Positions 3,595-20,997 of a DNA stretch of 64,000 nt are shown here, in pieces. The position numbers and the translations under genes are program-made. Origin of the DNA: Myxococcota bacterium (GTDB lineage: Bacteria; Myxococcota; SpSt-1050); contig JBMFOP010000002.1 in NCBI GenBank assembly GCA_049969675.1, positions 758 through 64,757 of the forward strand. Reading direction: 5' to 3'. How positions within the stretch are numbered: the first letter of the stretch is position 1; every line of letters starts with the position of its first letter. Below the pieces are notes generated by a model. It saw only the letters and a list, made by a program, of their open reading frames with translations. It was not told the DNA's origin and ran no database searches.

Positions 3595-3605
3595 GGGGAT
3601 AAGAG

Positions 3606-5639
3606 ATGGTAAAGAAACCACCAAAAAAAGGCAATGATGAGCTTGAATTTCTGGATGATAACTCACTTGATGAGGAGTTTATTGAGGTAGAGGAAGAGGG
3701 AATTGCGAAAGAGGATAAGACTGTGCCGAGGGCAAAGATTCCTCAGCCAGTCAGACCGATAGAGCCGGTAAAAGAGATTCCACCCCCTGTTCCAACTCCT
3801 CCTCCCCCTCCGAAGAAACCCGTAGTCAAAGAGGTAGTCTTTACAGAAGGTCCTTTATCACCTGTCAACCCCAAAGAGATGCTTATCTCCTCACCCACCT
3901 CCGATACACTTATCAGCACAATATCTGAAAATCTCACTGGCTTCAAGTTGATATTCTTTGATGGACCCAATATGGGCGAGGAGTATTCACTGGATAAGAA
4001 TATTATAACCCTTGGTAGAGGAGCCGATAACGATATTGTGATAAGAGATGTCTCCGTCTCCAGAAGGCACGCTGAGATATCCCGTGACCTCGGGCAGATA
4101 ACTATCAGGGACCTCGGCTCCGGTAATGGTGTGGTCTTAAATGATGAGAGGATTACTGAAAAGGCACTCTCGTCAGGCGATGTTATTAAACTCGGTAACA
4201 CCAGAATTAGATTCGTTGCAGTCTATGATATTTATACCACAGATACCGAACAGGCTTGGATAGGGGAGAAGGTAGCAAAACCAAGGGTAGTAGAGGCTGT
4301 CTCGGGTGGTCAGACATCACCCACTGCAAAGATCCCTCCGCAGAGGGCGGCCGTTGCCGCAAAACCTTCAGAGGGGAAGAAGCCGATACTTTTATATGCG
4401 GCTGTTATGTTTGCACTATTTGTTGTACTTCTTATCTTTGTAAAGTTTGTAATCCTGACCCCTGAGGAGGAGGGTGCAAAAACATCTACTAAAAAGGGGC
4501 AGGTGATATCAGATGATAAAGCCCTTGAGGCACAGAAGCTCCTTGAGGATGGTATTGAGAATTATAAGAAGAAGGACTTCAAGACGGCGCAGGAGAAATT
4601 TGTAGCTGCACTCGCCCTCGACCCCAACAACAGGAGGGCACAACAATATAAGAGCAGGAGTGAAGAGGAGTTAATAAATAAAAATTACCTTGACTCTGCC
4701 AAAGAATTTATGAGCAAGGATTCACCAAAAGGTGCACTTGAGGTCTTAAAGAAGATCTCACCTGAGTCGGTCTTTTACAATGATGCACAAACTATTGTCC
4801 GTTCTGCCACCAGTAGATATATAACACAATTGACTGAGACGGCACAGAAACAGATGGAGGAGAAGAGTTATCAGAATGCCCTTGAGTCAGTTCAGGAGAT
4901 ACTCTCTCTGGATCCGAGTGATTCTAAGGCGCTGGATATGAAGGCTCAGATTGAAAAGGGTCTTGCCTCCTCTACAAAGAAGGAGAAGGAGTCTGCTCAT
5001 AAGACCACTATGGCCGCAAAGGTAAAGAAGGAGACTGTGGAAGAGGAAGAGAGTTCATCAAAGACGATATCTGCGCCGGGTCCGGTAGCGAATAAGGCGG
5101 TGCAGATGTTTAAGGATGGAAATGTAGATGGAGCGGTGCAGACGATTGAGTCTTCCGACGCAGCATCCAATCCAAAGGTGCAGAAGCTCTTACAGAACTT
5201 GAAGGCATTTGCCCAGCTATATCCCGAGGGGGCTGCGGCCTATAAGGCGAAGAAGGATACTGCTATATCTGCCCTTGAACGTTCATATTCCATTGCAAAA
5301 TCTATTGCGCCGGGCAAAGACAACAAGTACCTCTCTGATATCTCAAAGATGCTCTCTGATATGTATACCTACAAAGGGATCAAGGACTTTTATAAAGAGG
5401 ACTACTTCTCTGCCATTGAGAATCTTCAGAAGGCATTAAAACTAAACCCCGAGAATGAGGCTGCCAGGAAGAAGATGGCGGAGATGGGCAATGTCGCACA
5501 GAGGCTCTTTGAAGAGGCATATGTCTTGAAGAATGCGGACCCTGAGGCGGCAAAGAAGAAATTTAAGGTAATACTAAAGATCGCACCACCTGATTCAGAA
5601 TTTTATAAGAAGGCAAAGGAATGGTTGACAAAGTTATAA
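3606..5639 (+). CDS. FHA-domain / Pro-rich / TM / TPR-repeat protein
   Basis: FHA signature ITLGRGADNDIVIRDVSVSRRHAEISRDLGQITIRDLGSGNGVVLNDERI. Pro-rich linker (PPPVPTPPPPPKKP). TM (LLYAAVMFALFVVLLIFV). C-terminal TPR-like repeats (QEKFVAALALDPNN..., LQKALKLNPENEAA...). Confidence 0.6.
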   Translation: MVKKPPKKGNDELEFLDDNSLDEEFIEVEEEGIAKEDKTVPRAKIPQPVRPIEPVKEIPPPVPTPPPPPKKPVVKEVVFTEGPLSPVNPKEMLISSPTSDTLISTISENLTGFKLIFFDGPNMGEEYSLDKNIITLGRGADNDIVIRDVSVSRRHAEISRDLGQITIRDLGSGNGVVLNDERITEKALSSGDVIKLGNTRIRFVAVYDIYTTDTEQAWIGEKVAKPRVVEAVSGGQTSPTAKIPPQRAAVAAKPSEGKKPILLYAAVMFALFVVLLIFVKFVILTPEEEGAKTSTKKGQVISDDKALEAQKLLEDGIENYKKKDFKTAQEKFVAALALDPNNRRAQQYKSRSEEELINKNYLDSAKEFMSKDSPKGALEVLKKISPESVFYNDAQTIVRSATSRYITQLTETAQKQMEEKSYQNALESVQEILSLDPSDSKALDMKAQIEKGLASSTKKEKESAHKTTMAAKVKKETVEEEESSSKTISAPGPVANKAVQMFKDGNVDGAVQTIESSDAASNPKVQKLLQNLKAFAQLYPEGAAAYKAKKDTAISALERSYSIAKSIAPGKDNKYLSDISKMLSDMYTYKGIKDFYKEDYFSAIENLQKALKLNPENEAARKKMAEMGNVAQRLFEEAYVLKNADPEAAKKKFKVILKIAPPDSEFYKKAKEWLTKL

Positions 5640-6232
5640 ATTACAAATCATTGAGTGATAATGAACTTGTAACTCTGATAAGGGATAAGGATTACGCCGC
5701 CTTTGAGGAGATTGTAGAGAGATATTCTCCAAAGGCTATGAGGCTTGCTCTTAAAATAACTAAAAACAGGGAGGACGCGCAGGATGTCCTTCAGGATACC
5801 TTTGTGAGTATATATAAAAACATAGAGAGTTTTAGAGGTGATTCAGCGCTCTCAAGCTGGATATACAGGATATGCACAAATTTTGCACTGATGAAACTCA
5901 GAGGGAAGAAGGTGGAGAATCAGTCAGATTCTATGGATGAAAATCCAAATATGGATATAGAGAGACTCGCCGAGCATTCACACTCAGAAAATGATTGGTC
6001 TGAGAGGGCGGATAGATTACTTTTGAAGAAGGAGTTGAGGGAGAAGATAGATAAGGCTATTGATATGTTACCCGATGAATACAGGATTGTCTTTATTATG
6101 AAAGATGTAGATGGTATGTCCAATGAGGAGATATCAAAGGAGCTGAATCTTTCAATCCCTGCTGTTAAATCCCGTCTCCATCGGGCGAGATTATTTTTAC
6201 GGAGGGAGATATCAAAATATCTTGATGAGTGA
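5621..6232 (+). CDS. ECF-type RNA polymerase sigma factor (sigma-70 family, sigma-24-like)
   Basis: Region-2 motif (AQDVLQDTFVSIYKNIESFRGDSALSSWIYRICTNFALMKLR). Region-4 HTH (LPDEYRIVFIMKDVDGMSNEEISKELNLSIPAVKSRLHRARLFLRREI). Confidence 0.8.
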   Translation: MVDKVINYKSLSDNELVTLIRDKDYAAFEEIVERYSPKAMRLALKITKNREDAQDVLQDTFVSIYKNIESFRGDSALSSWIYRICTNFALMKLRGKKVENQSDSMDENPNMDIERLAEHSHSENDWSERADRLLLKKELREKIDKAIDMLPDEYRIVFIMKDVDGMSNEEISKELNLSIPAVKSRLHRARLFLRREISKYLDE

Positions 6233-6280
6233 ATCCTTTATGAATTCTAATCGTCTAAATACTACGAGAGGTCTTCCAAG

Positions 6281-6511
6281 ATGAGATGTAAGGAGGTAGT
6301 GGAACTACTTTGTGATTATCTGGAAGGAGAACTTCCAGAGGATCTTAAAAAAGAGCTTGAGGAACATTTCAATATGTGCAAGCCCTGTATAAAATTTCTA
6401 AGAACATATTCTGCTACCTCAAAGATATGCAGGCAGGTAATAGAGGAGAATCTGGACGAAGAGTGTGTTGAAGAGCTGAAAAAATTCCTCAGGAAAAAAC
6501 TATCAACTTGA
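6281..6511 (+). CDS. Putative zinc-binding anti-sigma factor (ZAS family)
   Basis: 76 aa, immediately downstream of the ECF sigma gene. Contains an H-x3-C-x2-C motif (HFNMCKPC), the ZAS signature. Starts with a Cys-containing N-terminus (MRCKEVVELLCDY). Confidence 0.5.
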   Translation: MRCKEVVELLCDYLEGELPEDLKKELEEHFNMCKPCIKFLRTYSATSKICRQVIEENLDEECVEELKKFLRKKLST

Positions 6512-6539
6512 CAAATATCTATTTTTATGTGAGTAAAAT
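6508..6539 (+). promoter_or_regulatory. Putative sigma70-type promoter for rpmH-rnpA-yidD-yidC
   Basis: TTGACA at 6508-6513 and TAAAAT at 6534-6539. Spacer is ~20 nt (longer than ideal). SD AAGGAG at 6574-6579 precedes the rpmH GTG start. Confidence 0.3.
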
Positions 6540-6588
6540 TGGTCTGTTTTTATTCTATTAACTATTTTGGAATAAGGAGCGATTATCT

Positions 6589-6738
6589 GTGAAAAGGACA
6601 TTTCAACCACACAACAAGAGTAGAAGAAGGACTCATGGATTTCTTTTGAGGATGTCTAGTAAGAGTGGTCAGGATATATTGAGAAGAAGGAGACGAAAGG
6701 GAAGAAAGAGATTAAGTGTCACGAGTTATGAGAAATAA
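6589..6738 (+). CDS. rpmH: 50S ribosomal protein L34
   Basis: Not in the ORF track (49 aa). GTG start with an AAGGAG SD. Translation [44 protein letters not shown] matches the L34 consensus (MKRTFQPS...RxHGFRxRM...GRxVLxxRRxKGRKxL). Followed by rnpA as in most bacteria. Confidence 0.8.
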
Positions 6739-6757
6739 GAGAGAGCAGTAGTAGATT

Positions 6758-7099
6758 TTGAGGGAATCTTTTCCGCAATGTCTAAGGATTTCAACAAAGA
6801 GAGATATACAACTATTAAAAGATTCTGACAGGAAGCTAAAAGGAAAATATGTCGTTATCATATACAGAGAGAACGGATTGGATTTTGCAAGACTGCTTCC
6901 GGTTGTCTCTTCAAAAGTCGGAAATGCTGTTATGCGAAATAGAATAAAGAGAAAAATTAGAGAGGTCTTTAGAAAGAGGGTCAAATCTTTATCTGGTTAT
7001 GACCTTATGATTATTGCAAAGAGGCTGGCGGCTGGTGCTGTATATTCTGAATTGGAGATTGATATCCTGAAGACATTAGAGCCCATCATAGATGAGTGA
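6758..7099 (+). CDS. rnpA: Ribonuclease P protein component
   Basis: TTG start. RNR-type basic motif ([18 protein letters not shown]). Conserved position between rpmH and yidD. Confidence 0.7.
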
Positions 7100-7316
7100 T
7101 TTTATGGTGAGATGGCTAATCTACTTTATCAGGCTCTATCAGAGGTTTGTATCACCTATGCTTCCACCAGTTTGTAGATTTCATCCTACCTGCTCTGAAT
7201 ATACTGTTGAGGCATTAAGGGAATATGGCCTATTCAGGGGTGGACTACTCGGGATATATCGTATCTTAAGATGTAATCCGTTTTCAAGAGGCGGATATGA
7301 CCCCGTGAGGAAATAA
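7092..7316 (+). CDS. yidD: Membrane protein insertion efficiency factor YidD
   Basis: Signature [61 protein letters not shown]. Confidence 0.8.
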
Positions 7317-9001
7317 TGGATTCAAGTGCAGCAAGGACATTTCTGGCGATAGCACTCTCAATGGCGGTTATACTTCTGTGGCAGATGTATATAGCAAAGA
7401 CTCATCCCCCTCGTATGCTGGATGCCTCATATTCCGATGCATCAGATAATTCATTGCCTAATCAGACGGAGGAGAAGTCCTCAACCGATGAGGTTAAGGC
7501 CTCAGATGATTCAAATAAAGTTAATAAAAACGAACCCTCTGATGGGAGTGCTATAGAATATGAGGAGAAGACGGTATCTTTAAGCAACAATCTATTTAAT
7601 GCGGTATTTACAAATAGAGGTGGAAGACTAAAGGAATTTACACTTAAAAAGTATTATCTCCCCCACGCTAAAGATAAAAATGTTAATCTTGTGCATGACA
7701 GTAGTGATACTTTATCATTTCTCCTCAACAATAAATTGTATAGATTCTCAGGCGACGATAGATACGATTTTATATCTGTCTCAGAGAGGCAACTGGTGTT
7801 GGAGTTTCTACACCCTGATGGGATATTAATTACAAAAGAGTATTCAATAGTTGGCGATTATGAGCTTGCCCTTAAAATTACCGTTACGAATAAATCTGAA
7901 AAAGAGTTCACCTTTAAACCTGAGCTCGTCCTGTCAGATTATGCATTGAAGGGTGGATTGGGCACGAATGAACTTAAGAGCAGTCTTATGGAATACTATT
8001 ACCCGCTCTGTCTTGCAAACGAGTCATTACTTGATGGGCTTGAACTCAAAAAAGGTCCTATCTCCAAATCTCAGGAGGGTAGTATTGGCTGGATTGCCTC
8101 TACATCAAGATATTTTATATCAGCAGTTATTCCAGTAGAGCAGAAGGTCTCACTCTGTAGATTCTCCTCAAACAATAATTATTATTTTACCGCATCACTT
8201 CTCTATCCCGAACGGAAGATTGAAAAGGGAAACAAAACCACCATCTCTTACAGGCTCTACTTCGGTCCAAAAGGATACTCAATGCTTAAAAAGGTCGGCT
8301 CTGACCTCAATCGCTCTGTGGATTTTGGCTGGCTTGCAGTTCTCTGTATCCCACTGTTATATCTTCTCAACCTCTTTAATTCATTTGTCCACAATTACGG
8401 GATTTCAATAATAATCCTTACTGTTATTGTAAAACTCATATCCATTCCATTTACACAGAAATCTATGAAATCTATGCAGGAGCTCCAGAAGATAAAGCCG
8501 AAGATGGATGAGATTCAGAAAAAGTATAAGGACAATAAGGAGAAGCTTAATGAGGAGATGATGAGGCTTTATAGAGAGCATGGTGTATCTCCATTTGGTG
8601 GCTGTCTCCCTATGATATTGCAGATGCCAATATGGTTTGCTCTCTACAGGATGCTTTCAAATTCTGTAGAATTATATCAGGCGGCATTTATCCCGGGCTG
8701 GATAAATGACCTCTCATCCAAGGACCCATATTATATACTGCCGGTGCTACTTGGTGTTGGGACATATCTACAGCAGAGGCTGACCCCTTCTACAATGGAT
8801 AGCACTCAGGCAAAGGTGATGTTGTATTTTATGCCCATATTTTTGACATTTATTATGATTTCGTTGCCATCAGGGCTTACATTATACATTTTTGTAAGTT
8901 CAATATTGTCAATTATTCATCAAATTTATATGAATAAGACAGGTCAGAGTAATCAAATCAACAAAAATCAAACCAAAAGCTTACGGGAGGAGCAAAAGTG
9001 A
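7316..9001 (+). CDS. yidC: Membrane protein insertase YidC
   Basis: N-terminal TM, large periplasmic domain, C-terminal 5-TM core with YidC motifs (GISIIILTVIVKLISIPFTQKSMKSMQELQKIKP ... GCLPMILQMPIWFALYRML). Start overlaps yidD stop. Confidence 0.85.
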   Translation: MDSSAARTFLAIALSMAVILLWQMYIAKTHPPRMLDASYSDASDNSLPNQTEEKSSTDEVKASDDSNKVNKNEPSDGSAIEYEEKTVSLSNNLFNAVFTNRGGRLKEFTLKKYYLPHAKDKNVNLVHDSSDTLSFLLNNKLYRFSGDDRYDFISVSERQLVLEFLHPDGILITKEYSIVGDYELALKITVTNKSEKEFTFKPELVLSDYALKGGLGTNELKSSLMEYYYPLCLANESLLDGLELKKGPISKSQEGSIGWIASTSRYFISAVIPVEQKVSLCRFSSNNNYYFTASLLYPERKIEKGNKTTISYRLYFGPKGYSMLKKVGSDLNRSVDFGWLAVLCIPLLYLLNLFNSFVHNYGISIIILTVIVKLISIPFTQKSMKSMQELQKIKPKMDEIQKKYKDNKEKLNEEMMRLYREHGVSPFGGCLPMILQMPIWFALYRMLSNSVELYQAAFIPGWINDLSSKDPYYILPVLLGVGTYLQQRLTPSTMDSTQAKVMLYFMPIFLTFIMISLPSGLTLYIFVSSILSIIHQIYMNKTGQSNQINKNQTKSLREEQK

Positions 9002-9750
9002 GTAATTTCTCAAAGAGACAATTTGAAGGAAAGACACTTGAAGAGGCTATTGAGAGGGCGGAGAAGGAACTCGGACTCTCAAAGGATAAGTTCATCTATG
9101 ATATTCTACGGGAGTCAGGTGGGGTTTTTGGCTTCGGCCAGAAGGTAGTAATTGAGGTGAGTCCAAGACCGGCTGATGTTAATGAAGAGGAGATTGAGAG
9201 AGGTGGTGAGGTCAAAGGGAATTCTCCATCCAATGGAAATGTGCAGAAGAAGATGCTGGAATTCTTTGAAGGGTTGCTTGAGAGGTTGAATGAGAGTGGT
9301 AAGATTGAGATTACTGAGGAGGATAGAAAGATTATAGTCAGGGCGGCGCTTGATGAGGGCTCAATCTTTCTGAACAGAAAGGGACATACCATTGACTCAA
9401 TAAAGCATCTTCTGAGCCTCATCGCCATAAGAGAGGGGGCTATAGGCAAGAGAGTAAGTATATTTATAGCCGAAAAACCATCTGATTCAAATCTTGATCT
9501 GGTAGAGATGGCAAAGGAGATTAAAGAGAAGGTAGAGCAACACCACAGGACAATTGCATTGGGTGGGATGGATTCAAAGACGCGAAAGGTATTTCATTCT
9601 GCCCTCGGGAGAGACCCAAATATTACTACTTATTCTGAGGGAGAAGGTGCAAATAGAAAACTCTATGTGGAGAAGAGGGGAAGGATAAATAGCCATCACA
9701 ACAGACAATATATTAAGAGGAATAATAGAGGAGGTAAGAGACATGAATAA
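8998..9750 (+). CDS. khpB: Jag/KhpB-like RNA-binding protein (Jag_N, KH, R3H domains)
   Basis: Conserved position after yidC. GTG start overlapping yidC stop. C-terminal R3H-like segment (TIALGGMDSKTRKVFHSALGRDPNITTYSEGEGANRKLYVEKR). Confidence 0.65.
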   Translation: MSNFSKRQFEGKTLEEAIERAEKELGLSKDKFIYDILRESGGVFGFGQKVVIEVSPRPADVNEEEIERGGEVKGNSPSNGNVQKKMLEFFEGLLERLNESGKIEITEEDRKIIVRAALDEGSIFLNRKGHTIDSIKHLLSLIAIREGAIGKRVSIFIAEKPSDSNLDLVEMAKEIKEKVEQHHRTIALGGMDSKTRKVFHSALGRDPNITTYSEGEGANRKLYVEKRGRINSHHNRQYIKRNNRGGKRHE

Positions 9751-10054
9751 GAAACTAATCATTCTCGTAATTGTGCTTCTGGTCTCTCTGGCTGCGGTTC
9801 TTGTATATGCACAGGGGATTCAGGTTCAGCAGATCCCACAGACTGTTGAACAGTCTCCGGTCCAACCAGCGGTTGGCACCGTTCTGACTCAGGTTCAAAA
9901 GCCCCAGCAGACCAGCACAAACTCCCTTGTATCTCTCTCCCCGGACACCTTTGTGTCTGTAAAGGACCACGGCGATTCACAGACAGTAATGATATACAAG
10001 GTGGATGACCAGGGGAAGGTAAGACTCACACACAAGGCTAAATTCTTTTATTAA
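9743..10054 (+). CDS. Small secreted Gln-rich protein, unknown function
   Basis: Signal peptide (MNKKLIILVIVLLVSLAAVLVYAQG). Q/V-rich low-complexity middle region. Start overlaps jag stop by 8 nt. Coding status uncertain. Confidence 0.4.
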   Translation: MNKKLIILVIVLLVSLAAVLVYAQGIQVQQIPQTVEQSPVQPAVGTVLTQVQKPQQTSTNSLVSLSPDTFVSVKDHGDSQTVMIYKVDDQGKVRLTHKAKFFY

Positions 10055-10090
10055 TCAGACCTATCTCAATTAAATTATATATCATCTTAA

Positions 10091-11422
10091 ATGAAGACAG
10101 ATGATGCTATTATAGCACTTGCCACACCGGATGGCAGAGGTGCTATCGCTGTATTCAGGATATCGGGAAGAGGCTTAAAAAGACTTCTCTCTGATATTCT
10201 ACCTCTTGATAAAATAGAGCCGCGTCTCTTAAAAAAGGTCCTGTTGAGAGATGACAATGGAGATATTCTTGATGAGATAACTTTTGTATATTATGCTGAG
10301 CCAAAGTCATATACAGGGGAGGATGTAATAGAGATATTCACTCACGGTGGGGTGGCAAATTCTAAAAGGATATTGAACTTCTTTGTAAAGAGGGGTTTGA
10401 GGATTGCAGAGCCCGGTGAATTCACATTCAGGGCACTTTTCAACGGGAAGCTCTCTCTTTCAAAGGCAGAGTCTATAGATTCAATTTGCAAGGCGGAGAA
10501 TATTGTTGAATTGAATTCAGCGATTCAGGGACTTTCGGGAAGAAGTGACGAGTGTTTTAGAAAAATATATAATCTTTTTCTTGAAATATATGCGGATATT
10601 GTAAATGAAGTAGAGTTTGTTGAGAATGACCCCAATCTTCTGGTATATAAAGATAGGATAATGGAGCTCAATCATAGTGTAGATGAGTTGATAGACTCTT
10701 ATGAGAGTATAAGGGGGTGTTTTGATGGAGTTGATATAGTAATTGCAGGTAGGAGTAATGTGGGTAAATCTTCTCTCTTTAACAGGCTTATAGACGAGGA
10801 GAGGTCAATTGTAACAGAAATAGAAGGGACGACGAGAGATGTTGTGGACAGGAGGGTCTATATAGGAAATCTACCTGTGAGATTTGCAGATACGGCCGGA
10901 CTGCGTGAGACGGCAGATAAGGTGGAATTGATTGGGCAGAAGCGGACAGCAGAGGAGATAAAGAAGGCGACACTTCTTCTCTATATGATTGATGTAGAGA
11001 AGGGTCTGAATGAATCGGATAAAAGAGTTTTAAGCGAGAATAGAGATAGAGTCATCCTTGTTGTGAACAAGATAGATCTTGACCCTGAATTCTCACTCAA
11101 TTGGGATGGGAGTATCTTTTATATTAGCGCAAAGTTCAATCAGGGGATAGTTGGTCTTATGGGTGGAATCAGAAATTTTCTGATGAATAGAATAGATTGG
11201 GATGCCCGCTCGCTTATCTTTAATAAGAGGCAGTATGACATCTTTCTAAATATAAGAGCTGCCCTTGAGAGGGTTCTGGATGTTATAGAGAGGGGAGATG
11301 TAATGGATATCCTCCTATTTGAACTTCGTGAGGTAAAGAATTATTTTGAGAGCCTGCTTGGATATAAAATGGATGAAGATATCTACAGGAGCATCTTCTC
11401 CCGCTTCTGTATAGGAAAGTAG
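10091..11422 (+). CDS. mnmE: tRNA modification GTPase MnmE (TrmE)
   Basis: G-domain motifs (GRSNVGKSSLFN, DTAGLRE, NKIDL). C-terminal CIGK tetrapeptide typical of MnmE. Conserved position after jag. Confidence 0.85.
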   Translation: MKTDDAIIALATPDGRGAIAVFRISGRGLKRLLSDILPLDKIEPRLLKKVLLRDDNGDILDEITFVYYAEPKSYTGEDVIEIFTHGGVANSKRILNFFVKRGLRIAEPGEFTFRALFNGKLSLSKAESIDSICKAENIVELNSAIQGLSGRSDECFRKIYNLFLEIYADIVNEVEFVENDPNLLVYKDRIMELNHSVDELIDSYESIRGCFDGVDIVIAGRSNVGKSSLFNRLIDEERSIVTEIEGTTRDVVDRRVYIGNLPVRFADTAGLRETADKVELIGQKRTAEEIKKATLLLYMIDVEKGLNESDKRVLSENRDRVILVVNKIDLDPEFSLNWDGSIFYISAKFNQGIVGLMGGIRNFLMNRIDWDARSLIFNKRQYDIFLNIRAALERVLDVIERGDVMDILLFELREVKNYFESLLGYKMDEDIYRSIFSRFCIGK

Positions 11423-11552
11423 AATTTGCCATAGATAAATGGAGGGATTTTCGCAATCGCTTAAAATCATTTAGAGAGAGACGAGAGAGAAAAAGGGAAA
11501 GAAAAAAGATTGACAGGATGGTGAAGGTTATATATTTTTTAAGAGCGAGATT

Positions 11553-11929
11553 GTGTTTGAAATGATTCAAATAATAAACAGGTCAAATTGTCGTTACACT
11601 ACCAAATTATTTCAAGAAAAGATGGGAGGGGTTGTGATGGATAAATGGATTGAAAAGTTTAAAGAAATTATCCCGACCTTGCAAAAGATAAATCCTTCAA
11701 AGATTATAACCTTTGGTTTAAGAGAGAGCGGTAATGCAAAAGAAGCGTCAGATATTGACATAATAGTAGTTTCAGACTATATCAAAGAATTTCTTTCTTG
11801 AAGAGGATGCCTATGCTTTTGAGGATGCTGGATTTTGAAATACATATAGATTTTCTGTGCTATAGGGAAGATGAGTTTGAAAGAATTAAAAATAACTCTG
11901 TAATTGTCAGTTCTGAATTGAAAGATTGA
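11553..11929 (+). pseudogene. Frameshifted minimal nucleotidyltransferase (MntA-like antitoxin) remnant
   Basis: ORF 11553-11801 carries the NTase motif (FGLRESGNAKEASDIDIIVV). The expected C-terminal part (KRMPMLLRMLDFEIHIDFLCYREDEFERIKNNSVIVSSELKD) continues in the +1 frame up to TGA at 11927-11929. Confidence 0.5.
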
Positions 11930-11958
11930 ATAGAAATTTAGCCAATGGAGGTGGATGA

Positions 11959-12252
11959 ATGAAAACAATCAAAGAGATAAAAAAGGTTATTGAGAAAGAC
12001 AGAGAGGTTATAGCAAGGGAATTTAAGGCAGAAATTATAGGTATATTTGGCTCTTATGTTCGTGGTGAGCAGAATGAGTGGAGCGATCTGGATATACTTG
12101 TCAGGTTTAAAGAAGGTGCAACATTATTTGATCTTGTAGGACTTGGTGATTTTCTTGAAGAGAAACTCAGTATAAAAATAGATATAGTATCTGAAAATGC
12201 GGTAAGACCGGAGGTAAAAGAGCATATATTAAAAGAGGTGGTAACAATATGA
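11959..12252 (+). CDS. mntA: Minimal nucleotidyltransferase, MntA-type antitoxin
   Basis: GS-x9-13-DxD motif (IIGIFGSYVRGEQNEWSDLDILVRF). 97 aa. Stop overlaps the downstream HepT-like start (ATGA). Confidence 0.65.
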   Translation: MKTIKEIKKVIEKDREVIAREFKAEIIGIFGSYVRGEQNEWSDLDILVRFKEGATLFDLVGLGDFLEEKLSIKIDIVSENAVRPEVKEHILKEVVTI

Positions 12253-12611
12253 AAAGAGATTATCTTCTTTTTTTGAAAGATATACTCAATGCAGTGGAAG
12301 CAATTGAAAGATTTGTTGAGGGAATGGATCTGGAGGCGTTTATTGAAGATGATAAAACCTCAAGCGCAGTTATAAGAAAATTTGAAATCATTGGTGAGGC
12401 AACAAAAAATGTTCCAGATTGGATACTAAAAAAACACCCCAATATTCCATAGAAACGCATGGCTGGAATGCGAGATAGACTGATACATGGTTACTTTGGT
12501 ATTGATTACAAATTGGTGTGGGAGGCGATAGAAGTTGAAATACCTAAAATAAAACCCGAATTACAGAAAATTCTCAAAGAGTTGGAGAACATTGATGAAA
12601 ACGGTGGATGA
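12249..12611 (+). pseudogene. hepT: HepT-like (DUF86/HEPN) toxin gene interrupted by an in-frame amber codon at 12450-12452
   Basis: ORF 12249-12452 stops at TAG. The same frame continues for 53 more codons (KRMAGMRDRLIHGYFGIDYKLVWEAIE...) and contains the HEPN RX4HXY motif (RDRLIHGY), ending at TGA 12609-12611. Confidence 0.6.
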
Positions 12612-12841
12612 AATATAACAAACACTTATATCCAGATTAGCTGACAAAAACCGGTCGTCAGACAGAAATAAAATTCCAAACAGAGTGCCAGATACTTTAC
12701 CGATTCCACAGATCAAATTTTGTATACAAAACAACTGGTGTCCAATTTAGAATTTCAAAAATGATAAAAAAAGACAGATGAATGAACTAAAAAAGAAATT
12801 GAAATCAATAGAAGGGTAACTTTTCATTCTATAAATTATTT

Positions 12842-14500
12842 CTATTTTTTCAATCTGTATACTGTAAGCAGGTCCACGCCCTCAACGGAGATATTAAATA
12901 GAGCGGGGTAATCTCTGTATCTCTTATATAGTTCGGGATATTCTCTCCACCTCTCTTCATGAGTTAGTACCAGATATTCTGCATTCTGAAGATCAGTGAT
13001 TTTTATATCTTCTCTTAAGATCTTATCTCTCTTAAAGTAGGGGGCTGAGCGAATATATTCTTTATTGTTTGGCAAGAAAGTGACCTTTGCATTATGTGGA
13101 AGATTCTTATTAAACCATCTGGCAAGCTCAACATAGAAGATATCATAATATTGCCTCTCCATACCGGCTTTGAGCGCCCCCTTTGGTCCGCCAATAAAAA
13201 TATTGTAATAGCTCAGATGATATGGATGAATCCTGAAGGTAGAATAGGCGGCTGGCAAGACTGATATCAGGAGCAGGAGTGAGGCAGAGATATAGGTGAT
13301 GACTTTATTTCTCTCATTTAGTTTGAATTTTCTTACAACAAATTCATATATTCCCTGAACCCCTACTCCAGACAAAGCTGCAAAGAAAGGGAAGAATGGC
13401 AGGAAGAGTTTTACTCCACCATATTTTGGCACATCCGGGAATGCCACTGTCCCAATAGTTATAAATGCATTTATCAGGAGAAGTTCATAAAATATCTGTT
13501 GATTTTCATCAGGTTGAATCAATTTCTTATAGGTCTTAAAGAGTGTGAGAGATATCAGTGCAATTCCAGACAGCCCGAGTATTATTGTAAGAGGAGGGGT
13601 TGTAATCAGTGTCATTACAAAGGGGGAGTGCCAGGGCGCAAATGGTTTTTCATAGATTGTCCCGAAGTAGTAGAAGTATATCCCGTAGTGTTTCAGGTGA
13701 AAACCCAGATACTCATTTAGCCTTTTTAAGGTATCATTCCATATCCAGGGCCACATCAGGTAGAATACCAAAAGTCCAATAACAGGCATTGTTAACAGAC
13801 TCAATTCAATCTTTGGGAAACGAACTCCATATCCTTTGATGTATCTGAAATCATCTATATTCTTAACGCCCCAATATGCAAGAACTGCGGCGTAGAAGAA
13901 TGGGGCATTCAACTTTGTTGAGAGTGCAATTCCAAAGACGAGCCCAACAAGTATAGACCATTTCAGGGATTTTCTTGATGCAATATAGGCTGCAAAGGAG
14001 AAGAAGTAGGTAGATGCAACCGCCGCATCCAGTGTCTCTACATGTGAATGAAAGAAGAATCGCGGCATAAATAGTAATAGAATTGAAGATGAGACCGCTG
14101 AGAGAAACCCTACATATCTGTACATCGTATAGCAGAGGAGAAATCCTAAAATGGAGACGATTATAATTATCCCGAGTCTGATGCCGGTGATGTTATTGGT
14201 AAGTTTGAGCCATTTTGTAAATATCAGGTGAGACATCCCCATTACGAGTTTTGCAAATGGGGGGTGTTCATGATTGTAGCTCCAGTATTTATCAATCTCT
14301 GATTGGGCAAATCCAGTAAAGTCCAGCCTTATTATCTTTGTAAAAGTCTCTGTAATCCACTCCGAATACCTCATTGCCGCATTCATATAGAAGTCTATAT
14401 CGTCTGTAAGCCCGATCTCTTCTGTTGTGGGGATTAATACAGCGAGATATAGTATGAAAATAAATAATGATGTGTATAATATTTTCCTTTTTTCTGGCAT
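12842..14500 (-). CDS. GT-C fold membrane glycosyltransferase, PMT_2/ArnT family (GT39/GT83-like), paralog 1
   Basis: Multi-pass membrane protein. First-loop acidic pair (LTDDIDFY) and the family hallmark HPPxxK (YNHEHPPFAKLVMG). Later loop STKLNAPFF. C-terminal ~150-aa soluble domain. ~35-40% identical by eye to the adjacent paralog. Confidence 0.55.
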   Translation of the reverse strand: MPEKRKILYTSLFIFILYLAVLIPTTEEIGLTDDIDFYMNAAMRYSEWITETFTKIIRLDFTGFAQSEIDKYWSYNHEHPPFAKLVMGMSHLIFTKWLKLTNNITGIRLGIIIIVSILGFLLCYTMYRYVGFLSAVSSSILLLFMPRFFFHSHVETLDAAVASTYFFSFAAYIASRKSLKWSILVGLVFGIALSTKLNAPFFYAAVLAYWGVKNIDDFRYIKGYGVRFPKIELSLLTMPVIGLLVFYLMWPWIWNDTLKRLNEYLGFHLKHYGIYFYYFGTIYEKPFAPWHSPFVMTLITTPPLTIILGLSGIALISLTLFKTYKKLIQPDENQQIFYELLLINAFITIGTVAFPDVPKYGGVKLFLPFFPFFAALSGVGVQGIYEFVVRKFKLNERNKVITYISASLLLLISVLPAAYSTFRIHPYHLSYYNIFIGGPKGALKAGMERQYYDIFYVELARWFNKNLPHNAKVTFLPNNKEYIRSAPYFKRDKILREDIKITDLQNAEYLVLTHEERWREYPELYKRYRDYPALFNISVEGVDLLTVYRLKK

Positions 14501-14503
14501 TTT

Positions 14504-16186
14504 TTATCTATCAGAACGAATATAGGTCTGAACCATCGGCGCCTCATCAATATAGACACCGTGTCTTGCCACTTTATTCCCGAAATATCTCCATATTTTG
14601 TAGAGGTCTTTCATATACCCCTTCTGGAAGTGAAATGTGGCGGCGGTGGCATTCTCCGGGTCATTGGCATAATTGATATCTCTTCGTAAAAATCCATCTC
14701 TCTGATACATCCTGTATGAATCGTAATTTGTCCTCTGAAAGTAGACCGAGGAGTTTGGAGGTAGATTTTTATTTAAATAAGGTAGTTCATAATACCCAGC
14801 AAATCCCCAGAACTTTCTCTGCATCTCAAGGTCTGCTGCACCCCTTGTCCCTCGCACAAATTCGTTGTAGAAGCCAGTCCCTATTGGATGAATATATATT
14901 ATTCCTAAGATTCCAGTGAGTATTATTAAAGATATAGTGGCATATTGAATTTCTCTACTGAATTTAATGAGTGAAGGCTTAAAGGAGATGACAAATTTCA
15001 GAAGGGTCTCAAATTCAAGTGCCCCGAGGAGACAGAAGTACGGCATGGCGTTGAACCAGTGTTTTACGCCACCGAAGATTGGCACAGATGGGAGTGAGAT
15101 GAGAAAGATAGGGAAGAAGGCATTGAGCAAGATTAGTAGCATAAAGGCGCGGCTCTCAAGTGTGGAGTAGATTTGAGGCGTCTTTCTTATCCATTGGACA
15201 ATCAACCAGAATGTTGTTCTTAAAGAGCCAATTGCGCCGAGCGTCCAGATGACCGCCGGTACAGTAATCATAGTTATTACATATGGGTAAGATATGGGTA
15301 AAGGGGGCCTGTCGTATGTGACATTAAAATATGAGACCGGGTAGTGTTCGTGATGAAGATGGAAATTGTAATAAGCCCCAAGCCTTGCAAGGACATCTGG
15401 CCAGAGATATGGCCAGTGTCCGATTAATATAATTGGTCCAAATACCAGCATAGAAAAAAATGCGAGCGGTATTGTGGGAATTGAGAGTGAGACACCACCA
15501 TCTTTATCTCTATAAAACCTGAGTTCGTTGTGCCTGAGATAGATTATGTAGATAATCAATAAAAATGGTATGAAATATGCATTGTGCTTGGTTGCAATGG
15601 CAAATCCGAATATTATTCCGGTAAATATTGCCCATTTAAATGAATAGATTGACTTAATAAATGCATAAACTGTAAAGAACCACATCGCCGTAATGGGGAC
15701 ATCAAAACAGGCGAGGTGTGAATGGAACCAGAATCTTGGAATCACTGCCATCATAAGTGTTGAGAGTATGGCAACTCTACGATTGAAGAATTCTGCTCCA
15801 AATAGGTACATCAAAAAGAGGAGCAGGCCGGCAGAAAAGATCCCCGGGAGTCTGAAACCGGTGGAGTTGTTTGTTAGTTTCAGTTTATTGGTAAATATCT
15901 GCCAGGAGAAACCAAAGAGCTCCTTCATAAGAACTGGATGCTCATGATTGTAATCAAAGTATCTATCTATATTTGCCTTTGTAAATGAGGCGAGGGGCCT
16001 CCCTTTCTTTATATTCTCCAATAGTTCAACAAACCAGCCATTATATTGTTCGGCGGCTTTGAAATAGTACCCTTCATCTCTCACAAAGCCAATATCTTTA
16101 CTCGTGGCAACAAGAGTGATTATATAGAAAAGGGCAATTATGAGGGCGATTATATAATCTTTCTTTGTCAGTCTATTCCTGTTCAT
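14504..16186 (-). CDS. GT-C fold membrane glycosyltransferase, PMT_2/ArnT family (GT39/GT83-like), paralog 2
   Basis: Loop-1 DE motif (FVRDEGYYFKAA). HPxL motif (YNHEHPVLMKELFG). RLPGIFSAGLLLFLMY resembles the ArnT/PMT RLPSALFG arm. ATKHNAYFIPF. 3 bp from paralog 1. Confidence 0.6.
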   Translation of the reverse strand: MNRNRLTKKDYIIALIIALFYIITLVATSKDIGFVRDEGYYFKAAEQYNGWFVELLENIKKGRPLASFTKANIDRYFDYNHEHPVLMKELFGFSWQIFTNKLKLTNNSTGFRLPGIFSAGLLLFLMYLFGAEFFNRRVAILSTLMMAVIPRFWFHSHLACFDVPITAMWFFTVYAFIKSIYSFKWAIFTGIIFGFAIATKHNAYFIPFLLIIYIIYLRHNELRFYRDKDGGVSLSIPTIPLAFFSMLVFGPIILIGHWPYLWPDVLARLGAYYNFHLHHEHYPVSYFNVTYDRPPLPISYPYVITMITVPAVIWTLGAIGSLRTTFWLIVQWIRKTPQIYSTLESRAFMLLILLNAFFPIFLISLPSVPIFGGVKHWFNAMPYFCLLGALEFETLLKFVISFKPSLIKFSREIQYATISLIILTGILGIIYIHPIGTGFYNEFVRGTRGAADLEMQRKFWGFAGYYELPYLNKNLPPNSSVYFQRTNYDSYRMYQRDGFLRRDINYANDPENATAATFHFQKGYMKDLYKIWRYFGNKVARHGVYIDEAPMVQTYIRSDR

Positions 16187-17124
16187 TTTAAATCCCTTGT
16201 ATCGGCATAGAAGCAGAAATGTCTGACCCCATCTAAGTGTGTGCTAACTCTAAAGGTTATTTTATGGGGACCATCTTTAAATCTCTTTGTATCAATATCA
16301 AATCTATGAGCACCTATCTTATTCGGGTTGGTGTGATATAGCATCTCTTTATCGTCTATCAATATGCTTAAAAATACAGGTGAACCCTCAACATATCTGA
16401 CTGCCTCATCTGTAAGCCCGCTAAATCCAGCAATCTTATCCCCGAATGTGATATCCTCAAAGTTGATTTCAATAATTGAATTTGTAATCGGGTGAGACCA
16501 TATACACTCTCTACCTGTGCCATCTATATCCAGAATCTCTCTACCAATATATTGCCAGTCTGGACCACCACATCTCCATTTCTCATCCTTAAAATCTTTA
16601 CACTCCTTAATTTCATTCCCTTTTAATATTCTAATCTTTGCATCTCTCAAATTTTTGAGAAAACTATATTTTATTACTGCTGGTTCTGGATTTTTATATG
16701 TGTATAACTCTAACTTGCCGAAATCCTTTTTTGAAATAAAATTGAACTTACCTCTTAAAAAGCCATCAGATTTTTTACCATAACCAAAGACAGAAAAGAC
16801 ATATATATTCTCATAAATTGACAGATCTTCTTTTGTAATATCTCTTGGATTTATAAGATTGAGCTCTCCTATATACTCTCTTGCACGCTCCGCCCAGAAT
16901 GGTTGAAGTATTACTACATCTCTCTCATTGTTGAAGCTTCTCTTGAGTTCTTTTGATATATCTTTGTAATCTTCTATGGAAGGTCTTGAGAGCGGGCTAT
17001 AAATATACCAGCCAATTGAAAATATGAGAACACCCACAAATGCACACAGAGAAATAATATTAATAATTTTCAACATTCTCTCAAAGGACATAATGGCAGA
17101 ATTCAATATAATAAAATTTCTCAA
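16183..17124 (-). CDS. Membrane-anchored protein of unknown function, co-transcribed with the GT-C pair
   Basis: N-terminal TM (IINIISLCAFVGVLIFSIGWYIY) then a ~270-aa soluble domain. ATGA overlap with the downstream glycosyltransferase. The true start is probably an internal Met, since the annotated N-terminus runs into the IS remnant. Confidence 0.4.
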   Translation of the reverse strand: MRNFIILNSAIMSFERMLKIINIISLCAFVGVLIFSIGWYIYSPLSRPSIEDYKDISKELKRSFNNERDVVILQPFWAERAREYIGELNLINPRDITKEDLSIYENIYVFSVFGYGKKSDGFLRGKFNFISKKDFGKLELYTYKNPEPAVIKYSFLKNLRDAKIRILKGNEIKECKDFKDEKWRCGGPDWQYIGREILDIDGTGRECIWSHPITNSIIEINFEDITFGDKIAGFSGLTDEAVRYVEGSPVFLSILIDDKEMLYHTNPNKIGAHRFDIDTKRFKDGPHKITFRVSTHLDGVRHFCFYADTRDLK

Positions 17125-17762
17125 ATTTCAATAATTATATAAGTTATAGACTTTTGCGGTATTTCTCCTTTTTCAATTAAGTATTCTAATGGGCTTTTTA
17201 ATCCCAACGATTTATGCGGCCCCTGTGTGTTATAAAATATCATATAATCTGTGAGTCTCTGATTAAACACTGCCTTTACATCCAAATTGTTGCCAATAAA
17301 TTCCTCTTGAATAGGTAATCCCTCACTGAAGCGGGGTAACGCTTTTGGGTTTGTCCATCCCAGATAACGATCCCTACACCCAATGTGACGAGGAGCAGAA
17401 CACCAGCCCAAACTGGCTACGACTCTCCTCCTGGCAAAGGCAAGATTACTCCAGATGCTCCCCTACAGACCGATTGTATCCCAAATAGTGATATTGTTCA
17501 ATGAGACCATTATAGGGCTTTTGGAGGGGAGTCCTTCTCACTCTATAGAGATGAACCATCTGCTTCGCTGTGGGTTGGCTGAGATAACTTCTCTTATTTT
17601 CTCTTGAATTTTACCACGGTATCCAATCTTCTCGCTCATAATTTTTAGATAACATATTGAGAAGCAGAACGAAAGCACTTTTTTAGATCTTTTAAAACGG
17701 AAAAACGGAGGATTTCCCCGCGTCAGTGAAACATTACAAATAATTATAAAACTATATTGCAT
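17121..17762 (-). mobile_element. Degenerate IS remnant (rve-type DDE transposase C-terminal fragment with frameshifts and stops)
   Basis: ORF 17121-17411 ends with the integrase-core C-terminal motif (FNQRLTDYMIFYNTQGPHKSLGLKSPLEYL). Upstream fragments in other frames (LIEQYHYLGYNRSVGEHLE stop; MSEKIGYRGKIQEKIREV...). No intact transposase ORF. Confidence 0.5.
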
Positions 17763-17802: not shown

Positions 17803-20800
17803 TTGTTTAAGCTATATCATTTTGGAGGTATTATGCCGATAGTAGAAGTAAATCCTAAAAACGCTAAATTAAAGGCTGGTGAATCAATTATATTTTCAGT
17901 AAAGTTTTTTGACAATGGAGGCAACCACATTGGTCCGGAGAAGCCTCAGGATATCAATCTAATCATTAAAAAGGGTAATGGGCATCTGGGAAGTCCAGTC
18001 ATCTCAAACAAAACCGCTATTTTTTCATATTCCCCCATTACGGAGAAGTCTATAATAGAAATTACAGGCAACGGGATAATAGATCCACCACAGATAGAGG
18101 TTGAACTTGATAAAGAACTCAGGGTGATGCCAAACTCTATTTATGAAAATTCAACAAATGCCTTCTTATCTGATTCCATAATAGAGGTTGAATACCAGAA
18201 AGAGGAGTTTGAGAATCCTGTAAGTAGAAAGGAGGTTGAGGGTCCGTGGTACTATAAGGCTGACATTGAGGGGAGGTTGATGAAGAATGAGGAGGAGGTC
18301 GCCAAAATCACCTTTGCAGATACTGAATGGAGGAATTGTAAGGTACCAATAAACTATTCACTGGAAGACCCCGCACTTGCAGATTTCTATGGATGGGTAT
18401 TCTTTAGAAAGAGGATAAAGATTGACCCAGAATTTTTAAGAAAGCATCAAAAATTTCTTTTAAGATTCAATGGCGTGGATTATTTTGCGAGGGTCTGGTT
18501 CAACGAGAGATTTTTAGGTAGCCACGAAGGTTACTTCAATCCATTTCAATTTGATATAACCGATTTGATAAAAGAAGGCGAAAACATAATAATGCTGGAG
18601 GTGAAGAATCCATACGACAATGGAATAAAGAGCGCATCAGAAGAGAATGCCACAAATCTGGCAGAGAAAATATGGATCAAAGGGATACTTAACTACCACG
18701 ATACAAGGCCCGGCTCAATTATGCTTGATGATGCATCTGCTCAGACAGTCGGCACAGGTGGAATTACTGATGTAGTAGAGATTATAGGGACAAATAATAT
18801 CAGATTTGAGAATGTCAGAATTGATACAATTGATGTTAAAGAAAATTCAGCGAAACTCAGGCTGACACTTGATATCGGAAACTACACTGGTAGAGAGCAG
18901 GATTATTTCATCACAACAGAGGTATCAGGGAAAGGATTTGAACAGAGGTTTAATTTCAGGCATAGAGTTACGCTCAAAAACGGATTCAGCAGATTTGTTA
19001 TAGAAAAAGGACTTTCCAATTTATCTCTCTGGTGGCCATACTCCCATCCCGAACTTGGAAATCCAGATCTATATGATATAAAAATATCTATAGCAGATAC
19101 ATTGATGCGGGATGTTGAGGTTTTGGTTGAGAAGCCTTCAAAGTCAAAAAAAGCCAAAAAGCAAGAGTTTGAGAAGAGGATTATTAAGACGAGGAAGTAC
19201 TACGACCTCTTTGAAACCACATTCGGATTTAGAGAGACAAAGCTCACAAAATCAGATGAAAAGGCGGAGTTTTACATCAATGGAAAGAGGCTCTTTATAA
19301 GAGGGACAAATATCATCCCGTCCATATACTTTTCTAAACTAAATATCTATACAATTCAGAAAGATATCAGCCTTCTAAAAAAGGCAAATCTGGATGCAGT
19401 AATAGTTCTGGACCATCTCCTCCCAGACCTATTTTACAGATTGATGGATGAGGCTGGGATTATGGTCTTTCAGGAATTTACATTGGTCTGGGAATATAAT
19501 ATCGCCAATTTCAAGAGAGAATGTGGAGATTTAAATCTTACCTCCAACATAGAAGTAATAAAGAGAATGGTGACAGAGGCATTGATGAAATACCAGAATC
19601 ATCCATCTATTGTATGGTGGTCAATGCACGACGAACCATTCTTTACATTTGGAAATTTTGAGGCTGGTGAGACTATAATACCAGAAAAGGTATTTGATGA
19701 ATCCGAAAAGCCACCTTTTATGATAGATAGAAGCGGGAATAAGATTCTGGACGAGGAGATAAAGAAAGTTGTAGAGAGATATAAGCCATCCATTCCGTAT
19801 CACATAAGCGGTAATGAATACACAAACTCTACAAATTATTACGGCTGGTATAACGGAACAGTTCTGGATTTGTATGAAAAGAAAATAGAGCCTATGCCAA
19901 TTGAATTCGGTTCACAGGCAGTCCAGTTCTCATCGGAGAAGAATATTTACAAAAAATATGAAGAGCTCTTCTGGCCACCAAAGAATGAAGAGGCATATAA
20001 AAGGCTCACATTCCACGACTGCCAGCTCCCACTTATGTCGGCAAGGATTGGGAAGAGCAGCAGATATGAAAAATATCTGGATTGGGCATTTGGTTCTCAA
20101 CTATATCAGGCATTTATTCTCAAATCGCACATTGAATTTTTCAGGATACACAAATACAATCCCACCGGTGTATTTTTCTACTTTATGTTTAATAACTACT
20201 GGGAGGGTATTACATGGGCAACACTCTCTGACAATAGAGAGCCAACAATTGCATATCAACAACTCTGTGAATATAATAAATCTGTTCAGCCAATTGCAAT
20301 TGTAAAGAGTGGAATCTTCAATGAGAGATTTATAAATATCCCGCTATATGTTGTAAACGATGAACATAGAGAATATATCGGACTGAAACTCTCTGTAAAA
20401 TTAAAGAAGACAAAGGATACATTCATAATCAAATCTGATCCCGAAGGATTTGATGAAGGTATAAAAACCCAATTTATGCAGTACGAACATAGAGATATAG
20501 CCCTCGCCATTCAATCTCTGGATGAAGGTAAAGAGACAATAAACACATGGGAATTTGATGTAAATCTACAATCTGATTCCATCTATAAAGTAGAAGATAT
20601 TCAAATTAATGTAGAAGATATCTCAAAACCATCGCATTTTATCTTTGAGATGGAACTCTCAAACCAAAATGGTATTATTTCAAAAAACAGATATTCAATT
20701 GTATTTGCCAGCAAAGACTATATTGAATCTCTACCGTACGGATTATCTCCAAAACCAGAATTTACTATTGAAATAAGTACTAAACTTACAAGACCTACAA

Positions 20801-20997
20801 ACATTCCAGTCAAATTTTCACTGGAGAGGTTGTACAGTCTAAAGCCCGGCTACGGGGCAATCCTGTTTGGTGAGGACAGGAAGGTGCTTAAAAATCTTGA
20901 GCCCGGACTTTATAGACTAATCTATACTCATATGAACAATGAAAGGATAAAAGAATTTATTCCCTGCTCAGATATGAAGATTGAACTAATCATATAG
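17803..20997 (+). CDS. Glycoside hydrolase family 2-like protein (beta-mannosidase/glucuronidase-like), ~1060 aa
   Basis: GH2 sugar-binding-domain pattern (FLLRFNGVDYFARVWFNERFLGSHEGYFNPFQFDITDLIKEGENIIMLEVKNP). TIM-barrel segment with putative acid/base region WWSMHDEPFF and putative nucleophile in PIEFGSQ. Long C-terminal extension. Confidence 0.6.
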   Translation: MFKLYHFGGIMPIVEVNPKNAKLKAGESIIFSVKFFDNGGNHIGPEKPQDINLIIKKGNGHLGSPVISNKTAIFSYSPITEKSIIEITGNGIIDPPQIEVELDKELRVMPNSIYENSTNAFLSDSIIEVEYQKEEFENPVSRKEVEGPWYYKADIEGRLMKNEEEVAKITFADTEWRNCKVPINYSLEDPALADFYGWVFFRKRIKIDPEFLRKHQKFLLRFNGVDYFARVWFNERFLGSHEGYFNPFQFDITDLIKEGENIIMLEVKNPYDNGIKSASEENATNLAEKIWIKGILNYHDTRPGSIMLDDASAQTVGTGGITDVVEIIGTNNIRFENVRIDTIDVKENSAKLRLTLDIGNYTGREQDYFITTEVSGKGFEQRFNFRHRVTLKNGFSRFVIEKGLSNLSLWWPYSHPELGNPDLYDIKISIADTLMRDVEVLVEKPSKSKKAKKQEFEKRIIKTRKYYDLFETTFGFRETKLTKSDEKAEFYINGKRLFIRGTNIIPSIYFSKLNIYTIQKDISLLKKANLDAVIVLDHLLPDLFYRLMDEAGIMVFQEFTLVWEYNIANFKRECGDLNLTSNIEVIKRMVTEALMKYQNHPSIVWWSMHDEPFFTFGNFEAGETIIPEKVFDESEKPPFMIDRSGNKILDEEIKKVVERYKPSIPYHISGNEYTNSTNYYGWYNGTVLDLYEKKIEPMPIEFGSQAVQFSSEKNIYKKYEELFWPPKNEEAYKRLTFHDCQLPLMSARIGKSSRYEKYLDWAFGSQLYQAFILKSHIEFFRIHKYNPTGVFFYFMFNNYWEGITWATLSDNREPTIAYQQLCEYNKSVQPIAIVKSGIFNERFINIPLYVVNDEHREYIGLKLSVKLKKTKDTFIIKSDPEGFDEGIKTQFMQYEHRDIALAIQSLDEGKETINTWEFDVNLQSDSIYKVEDIQINVEDISKPSHFIFEMELSNQNGIISKNRYSIVFASKDYIESLPYGLSPKPEFTIEISTKLTRPTNIPVKFSLERLYSLKPGYGAILFGEDRKVLKNLEPGLYRLIYTHMNNERIKEFIPCSDMKIELII

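Follow-up and report, generated by a model that had tools for sequence, protein, structure and literature searches.

The window analysed here, the whole 64,000-nt stretch of contig JBMFOP010000002.1 (assembly GCA_049969675.1, assigned to a Myxococcota bacterium), contains a cassette of three short genes, all on the plus strand. They lie between mnmE (10091–11422, on the yidC/mnmE side) and a set of PMT_2-type glycosyltransferase genes. The left edge of the cassette was recognised by DNA homology to a related locus, named L004 (Caldisericum sp. GCA_049970335.1, contig JBMFND010000049.1), and corresponds to the 3′-terminal ∼11 codons of a HEPN gene of the PF05168 type that has otherwise been lost (class II; positions 11604–11636). 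The first of the three genes, at 11637–11962, codes for a nucleotidyltransferase of the class II MNT type (∼114 aa); it is a pseudogene, and is assigned to PF01909 after repair. It is followed by mntA (11959–12252), which is intact and codes for a minimal nucleotidyltransferase antitoxin of 97 aa, and by hepT (12249–12611), a pseudogene for a HEPN/DUF86 RNase toxin that is broken at codon 68 and matches PF01934 when repaired. The right-hand neighbours of the cassette are two convergent PMT_2-type glycosyltransferase genes on the minus strand (12842–16186).

A candidate sigma-70-like promoter, TTGACA-17-TATTTT, was found upstream of the cassette at 11510–11538 on the plus strand (score 10 out of 12), and could possibly serve as the promoter of the cassette. 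The number of promoter-like sites in the cassette region did not exceed that expected from shuffled sequences, so the evidence for this site is weak. The interval between mnmE and the cassette also includes a purine-rich, low-complexity stretch, gagagagagacgagagagaaaaagggaaagaaaaaag, located at 11460–11510, directly before the TTGACA hexamer. The mntA-hepT pair is flanked by a direct repeat, GGTGGATGAA, present at 11950–11971 and 12603–12624 with 82% identity over 22 nt, and the C-terminal tail of HepT, ENIDENGG, was unlike that of all the relatives aligned. The repeat and the odd tail could be traces of recombination at an old junction, or be due to chance; two-copy repeats of 10–14 nt can arise by chance, which bears both on GGTGGATGAA and on a second repeat, AAGATGGGGTGAGT, described below.

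HepT is a HEPN RNase that cleaves RNA by means of an RX4H site, and MntA neutralises it by oligo-AMPylation of the tyrosine of the RX4HXY motif, an activity that depends on the GSX10DXD motif and is abolished when the GS residues are mutated (PMC7641770). Class I HEPN/MNT modules combine PF01934 (or PF08780) with PF01909, while class II modules combine PF05168 with PF01909; Shewanella oneidensis SO_3166/SO_3165 and Thermococcus cleftensis CL1_0071/0070 are examples of type VII HepT/MntA systems (PMC7641770). The pair found in the window resembles these systems in its gene order (MNT, then HEPN), in the ATGA overlap between its two genes, in an MntA of ∼97 aa with GSX10DXD, and in a HepT of ∼115–120 aa with RX4HXY, whose tyrosine is at position 82, as in T. 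cleftensis HepT. The Pfam families also agree: a toxin gene of the PF01934 family that encodes RX4HXY, in this case beyond the stop codon, lies next to a PF01909 MNT gene with GSX10DXD, as befits class I.

The mntA gene is preceded by its own Shine-Dalgarno sequence (GGAGGTG), and its TGA stop codon overlaps the ATG of hepT as ATGA. MntA matched NTP_transf_2 (PF01909) with an E-value of 5e-14 in Pfam and the minimal nucleotidyltransferase of PDB entry 1wot with an E-value of 1e-14; its motif reads G31-S32-x10-D43-L-D45 within GSYVRGEQNEWSDLD. It was 86% identical to the MntA of L004, against which its dN/dS was 0.22. These data bear out the claim, made in an earlier reading of the sequence alone (hereafter the sequence-only reading), that mntA is intact and ATGA-coupled to a DUF86/HEPN ORF. 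No second hepT was found within the 64-kb window. Judging from its sequence and surroundings, mntA would be an orphan antitoxin gene, the only intact gene of the cassette.

The hepT gene consists of 119 sense codons and a single TAG at codon 68 (12450–12452, plus strand), in agreement with the initial description of a HEPN ORF that is continuous save for one stop. Its translation reads MKRDY...HPNIP, the stop, and then KRMAGMRDRLIHGY...ENGG. The RX4HXY motif, which is both the catalytic and the AMPylation motif, is encoded 3′ of the stop at 12471–12494 (RDRLIHGY, R75 to Y82, with the histidine at position 80). It had been placed eight codons past the stop; it is indeed downstream, at a distance of seven codons. 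When the TAG was read as Trp, the repaired HepT matched PF01934 in Pfam with an E-value of 2.1e-30 over profile positions 1–120 of 120, and the 67-aa and 50-aa pieces each had a precomputed match to the same family. A search of 5.8 billion proteins provided thousands of full-length relatives, and the best 120 were all full length (111–124 aa). The closest homolog among the matches, a protein from a Caldisericum sp. metagenome-assembled genome (MAG), was intact and showed 90% amino acid identity. The sequence-only reading had proposed an alignment to intact HepT homologs; alignments of 32 and 35 sequences showed Trp in all homologs (34 homologs) at the position taken by the TAG. In the closest intact copy, that of L004, the codons read CCA TGG AAA, as against CCA TAG AAA in the window, the remaining DNA being 91% identical. 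The hepT lesion is thus a single G-to-A transition, converting the TGG of Trp68 into TAG.

An AlphaFold model of the intact homolog with 90% identity (P0001), used in place of the repaired HepT of the window, had a pLDDT of 91.8. Its top fold matches were the Shewanella HepT chains 7bxo, 5yep and 6m6u, with TM-scores of 0.65–0.68; the E-values were weak (0.03), though the top hits were consistent. Similarity to the Aphanizomenon HEPN toxin 7ae8 reached a TM-score of 0.71 in the same PDB fold search, again with weak E-values (0.03). Searches of PDB sequences with HepT, either as a single sequence or as a profile, gave no match, the sequence similarity of the solved Shewanella and Aphanizomenon proteins to the HepT of the window being below HMMER detection. 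In the model, the helices that follow residue 68 are two short ones (68–72 and 74–78), which carry RX4H, and a long C-terminal one (87–114). A product ending after 67 residues lacks the active site and about 40% of the fold, the model placing both the RX4H helix and the long C-terminal one beyond its end. An ATG at 12459, 6 nt past the TAG, opens a residual 50-aa ORF that runs from Met71 to the end of hepT (12459–12611, plus strand) and contains the motif; the frame 3′ of the TAG is open for 51 codons. No Shine-Dalgarno sequence was found before this ATG, in contrast to the GGAGG-like ones present at all three genes of the cassette, and the 50-aa ORF is presumably not expressed to a useful level. 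Thus, hepT has no continuous reading frame from which an active RNase could be made. Since the RX4H site is lost, the published mechanism leads us to infer that HepT has lost its RNase activity, leaving the toxin dead and the antitoxin orphaned. Unlike working HepT/MntA systems, the window has a toxin ORF cut at the invariant Trp68, before the motif, and an antitoxin gene that alone is intact; the pair has probably lost its toxin-antitoxin function.

The first nucleotidyltransferase gene is in a more advanced state of decay. It starts at ATG 11637, preceded by the Shine-Dalgarno sequence GGGAGGGG; a first reading frame ends at TGA 11799–11801, and a second runs on to 11929. Only after repair did the product match PF01909 (E-value 1.3e-6). 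Comparison with the DNA of L004 and with intact homologs of 110–130 aa (75–79% identical) revealed four lesions. The serine of the GS motif is replaced by leucine (TTA at 11718–11720), while G-S is present in all intact homologs. One G of an AAAGGAA sequence is missing at 11787/11788, a 1-nt deletion that puts the downstream part in the -1 frame. In addition, an in-frame TGA (11927–11929) and an in-frame TAG (11939–11941) occupy positions that in relatives code for Gly and Pro, respectively. The ancestral stop codon would overlap the mntA start (ATGA, 11959–11962), as it does in L004. The sequence-only reading had recognised a frameshift near 11800, which is present, although as a -1 rather than a +1 event, and the decay goes further than it had described, since there are four lesions and the HEPN partner is lost. 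Two GSX10DXD nucleotidyltransferase genes had also been claimed; this holds for mntA, but the first gene reads G-L and lacks the intact motif of a class II MNT.

The nature of the lost partner could be approached through the relatives. In L004 and in a further locus, L025, the intact members of the first nucleotidyltransferase family lie directly 3′ of a PF05168-type HEPN ORF, as in class II modules. These ORFs, of 68 aa in L004 and 55 aa in L025, end in ...YFKKRWGEL/NL and match the C-terminal end of PF05168 weakly, scoring 22.7 and 21.3 bits where the cut-off is 22; they differ from full class II modules in that the HEPN ORF amounts to just 55–68 aa, the C-terminal part of the domain. A tblastn search with the 68-aa ORF of L004 found only its residues 52–65 in the window, at 11584–11625, and no neighbouring PF05168 gene is present there beyond a remnant of ∼11 codons (11584/11604–11636). 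Unlike class II modules, therefore, the window has a HEPN part of ∼11 codons and an MNT gene that reads GL in place of GS, is frameshifted and contains two additional stops. The first nucleotidyltransferase gene thus appears to be an older pseudogene of a class II HEPN/MNT pair whose HEPN partner is almost entirely gone. The short PF05168-like ORFs of L004 (4892–5098) and L025 (2834–3001) share ∼86% identity over their last 50 residues and are at least as conserved as the nucleotidyltransferase; they may be functional mini-HEPN proteins rather than remnants.

The lesions were also looked for in other assemblies. Exact-sequence look-up of MntA led to a 28.9-kb contig (ENA ERZ3623746 NODE_401; L001), with a coverage of ∼3x according to its name, and a second contig with an identical MntA was a 13-kb one (GCA_049971375.1 JBMFLD010000090.1; L002). 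L001 is collinear with window positions 5959–17314 at 99.5% identity; along these 11.4 kb the two differ by 52 substitutions and by 2 indels, both of them intergenic. L002 differs from the window at 12 positions. The three contigs therefore derive from different strains. The TAG of hepT is present in L001, and the frameshift of the first nucleotidyltransferase gene in both L001 and L002; L002 stops 10 nt into hepT (window position 12258). Records of the 67-aa and 50-aa products exist for one more contig, of 53.6 kb; since it encodes the same MnmE as L001, it may come from that strain. On these grounds, the TAG of hepT is a real, fixed nonsense mutation. Exact-pattern scans for the TGG and TAG alleles, with two patterns against JGI metagenome contigs and one degenerate back-translated pattern against viral contigs, gave no match.

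These comparisons brought up three further observations. L002 ends, and a contig of the same accession series (L005) begins at its position 1, at or near the mntA/hepT boundary; a likely cause is that assemblies are fragmented by near-identical copies of the cassette in the community (those of the ‘Myxococcota’ and Caldisericum MAGs share 86–91% of their DNA sequence). Past position 17314, the window and L001 diverge fully: L001, compared over its positions 11357–12294, continues with a sigma-70 gene, and the window with a gene for a 1064-aa glycosidase of the GH2 family (17803–20997). The divergence at window position 17315 corresponds to a strain-level rearrangement or an island boundary. 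Finally, 10 of the substitutions between the window and L001 fall within 58 nt (14912–14969) of a PMT/PMT_2 glycosyltransferase gene, a density well in excess of the 0.46% background, and this cluster may be a small recombination tract.

Window positions 11604–12588 showed 86% DNA identity to positions 5065–6068 of L004, with no match past either end. In L004, the nucleotidyltransferase-MntA-HepT unit is part of a HEPN/MNT array located inside a gene for a DUF1156 methyltransferase and adjoining an SNF2 helicase gene; the region is a defence island. The GC content of the cassette is 32–35%, as against 38–45% for its flanks. A scan of species-representative genomes with MntA, in which the window's own species was not among the matches, gave relatives with at most 70% identity, mostly archaeal; the nearest mntA genes were archaeal, with 62–70% identity. 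The different context in L004, the low GC content and the archaeal nearest mntA genes support the view that the cassette is accessory and horizontally mobile, as the sequence-only reading had supposed.

Several features of the related loci concern the way in which such cassettes are arranged. The DUF1156 gene of L004 (3393–8588) is halved by the ∼2.4-kb array into an N-terminal part (3393–4895) and a C-terminal part (7338–8588). A 46-nt direct repeat occurs at the array junctions (4850–4895 and 5397–5442, with a degenerate copy at 6194–6239), and the two copies of the 14-nt exact repeat AAGATGGGGTGAGT, at 5080–5093 and 6065–6078, lie almost exactly at the ends of the unit that L004 and the window have in common. 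The repeats of L004 suggest that cassettes are shuffled by recombination at gene junctions. L025 (2834–3484) contains an intact DUF1156 gene followed by the HEPN remnant, the nucleotidyltransferase gene and a duplicated DUF1156 fragment of 52 aa, and in an Archaeoglobus locus (L009, 4466–4669) a DUF1156 N-terminal fragment lies 3′ of hepT. The association of this cassette family with DUF1156 genes is thus a recurring one.

The gene located 3′ of mntA was checked in 18 assessable loci of other genomes. An intact hepT (114–118 aa, with RX4HXY) was present in seven of them, and hepT was absent from three. In the remaining eight (L006, L007, L008, L011, L013, L015, L017 and L019) hepT was defective, being a remnant, frameshifted, internally deleted or shortened. 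Hence, 8 of the 15 loci with a recognisable hepT have it in a defective form, beside an open mntA. The lesions were all different and none was a stop at Trp68, which points to repeated, independent loss of the toxin and argues against a programmed signal at that position. Loss of the toxin with retention of the antitoxin is thus common in this mntA subfamily.

Considered together, these results make it very probable that the 11604–12611 segment is a horizontally acquired HEPN/MNT cassette undergoing ordinary decay, with a toxin that was inactivated recently. The four independent lesions of the adjacent MNT gene indicate that the whole locus is decaying. That the pair is decaying, with its toxin off and its antitoxin kept, had already been proposed from the sequence alone, and is upheld by the TAG at an invariant Trp, the intact mntA and the broken first nucleotidyltransferase gene. 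Other explanations for the interrupted hepT were nevertheless considered. The TAG might be leaky or subject to programmed read-through, or translation might reinitiate at ATG 12459, so that a metered trace of full-length or two-piece HepT is made in the presence of an excess of MntA. The frame downstream of the TAG, intact for 51 codons and with a low dN/dS, would fit this idea, as would the ATG 6 nt past the stop, the intact mntA and the presence of the TAG allele, fixed, in at least two strains. The dN/dS values against the Caldisericum copy of L004, which refer to the whole divergence between the two, were 0.07 for codons 69–113, a sign of strong constraint, and 0.31 for codons 1–67. These values and the preserved frame after the TAG are expected if the mutation is recent, and would equally result from continued selection on the C-terminal part. 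The mntA-hepT segment is 100% identical in the window and L001, with no further lesions among strains, and is thus uninformative about selection since the TAG arose. The context of the stop, however, speaks against read-through. Of the 10 large ORFs of the window that end in TAG, 7 have A as the next base, so that the stop at 12450 stands in the most frequent context of natural TAG terminators; no stimulatory RNA structure was detected in a 100-nt stretch spanning the hepT stop and the sequence beyond it (z=+1.0 relative to shuffled sequences), and reinitiation would have to proceed from an ATG that no Shine-Dalgarno sequence precedes. When UAG is decoded by near-cognate tRNAs, the residue incorporated is normally Gln, Tyr or Lys, any of which would replace the invariant Trp. 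Further, the best 120 homologs are full length, the TAG is limited to the lineage of the window and the closest intact copy has TGG, the hepT lesions of other relatives are unrelated, and the adjacent gene is plainly a pseudogene. Programmed read-through, one of the options offered by the sequence-only reading, is therefore unsupported, and a metered or split toxin seems highly improbable; were it real, keeping HepT at trace levels while MntA is in excess would represent a novel means of tuning a type VII toxin.

A sequencing or assembly artefact had been offered as another option, according to which the true genome would have TGG at 12450–12452 and an intact first nucleotidyltransferase gene. 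The sequences do come from metagenome assemblies, L001 has a coverage of only ∼3x, and L002 breaks 10 nt into hepT. However, both the TAG and the frameshift were found again in the independently assembled contig of a different strain, distinguishable by 52 SNPs over 11.4 kb, and the 67-aa and 50-aa products recur on the 53.6-kb contig, albeit possibly from the L001 strain. The indels between the window and L001 are confined to intergenic stretches, and four separate lesions in one gene, including an amino acid change, are not an error pattern. An artefact is thus scarcely credible, and the option can be discarded. Another explanation would be that TAG is a sense codon in this organism, by reassignment or through pyrrolysine. 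Beyond the in-frame TAG itself nothing favours it; the 41 large ORFs of the window end in TAA (16), TGA (15) or TAG (10), those that end in TAG have sensible gene ends and spacing, no tRNA gene was found within the 64-kb window, and the ancestral codon was that of Trp, TGG in relatives. To our knowledge, Trp is not among the known meanings of TAG. Reassignment and pyrrolysine were therefore rejected, the likelihood of either being next to nil.

Under the preferred explanation, the decay of a horizontally acquired cassette, the ancestral unit would have comprised a class II pair (a PF05168 HEPN and its MNT) followed by a translationally coupled class I MntA and HepT. The upstream MNT would have been lost first, through its four lesions, its HEPN partner being deleted. 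The G-to-A change at the Trp68 codon would then end translation after 67 residues, and no active toxin would be made. The inactivation of hepT was probably recent, and that of the first MNT gene ancient. The mntA gene may be intact because there has been too little time for it to decay, or because it is kept to neutralise related HepT toxins.

Chromosomal orphan antitoxins and toxin pseudogenes are known, and the ‘anti-addiction’ idea has been put forward in relation to them. The locus described here resembles such loci in that a chromosomal toxin is inactivated and its antitoxin kept, a pattern shared by 8 of the 15 related loci. HEPN/MNT modules are the most abundant predicted class of toxin-antitoxin systems in prokaryotes. 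The locus itself is of little wider weight, being one more case of the turnover of a HEPN/MNT cassette in which the toxin is knocked out and the antitoxin persists. For annotation, it implies that hepT and the first nucleotidyltransferase gene are better labelled pseudogenes than small ORFs. With roughly half of the hepT genes beside mntA of this subfamily defective in the sampled genomes, the finding also bears on how many of the toxin-antitoxin systems counted in MAGs are ‘functional’.
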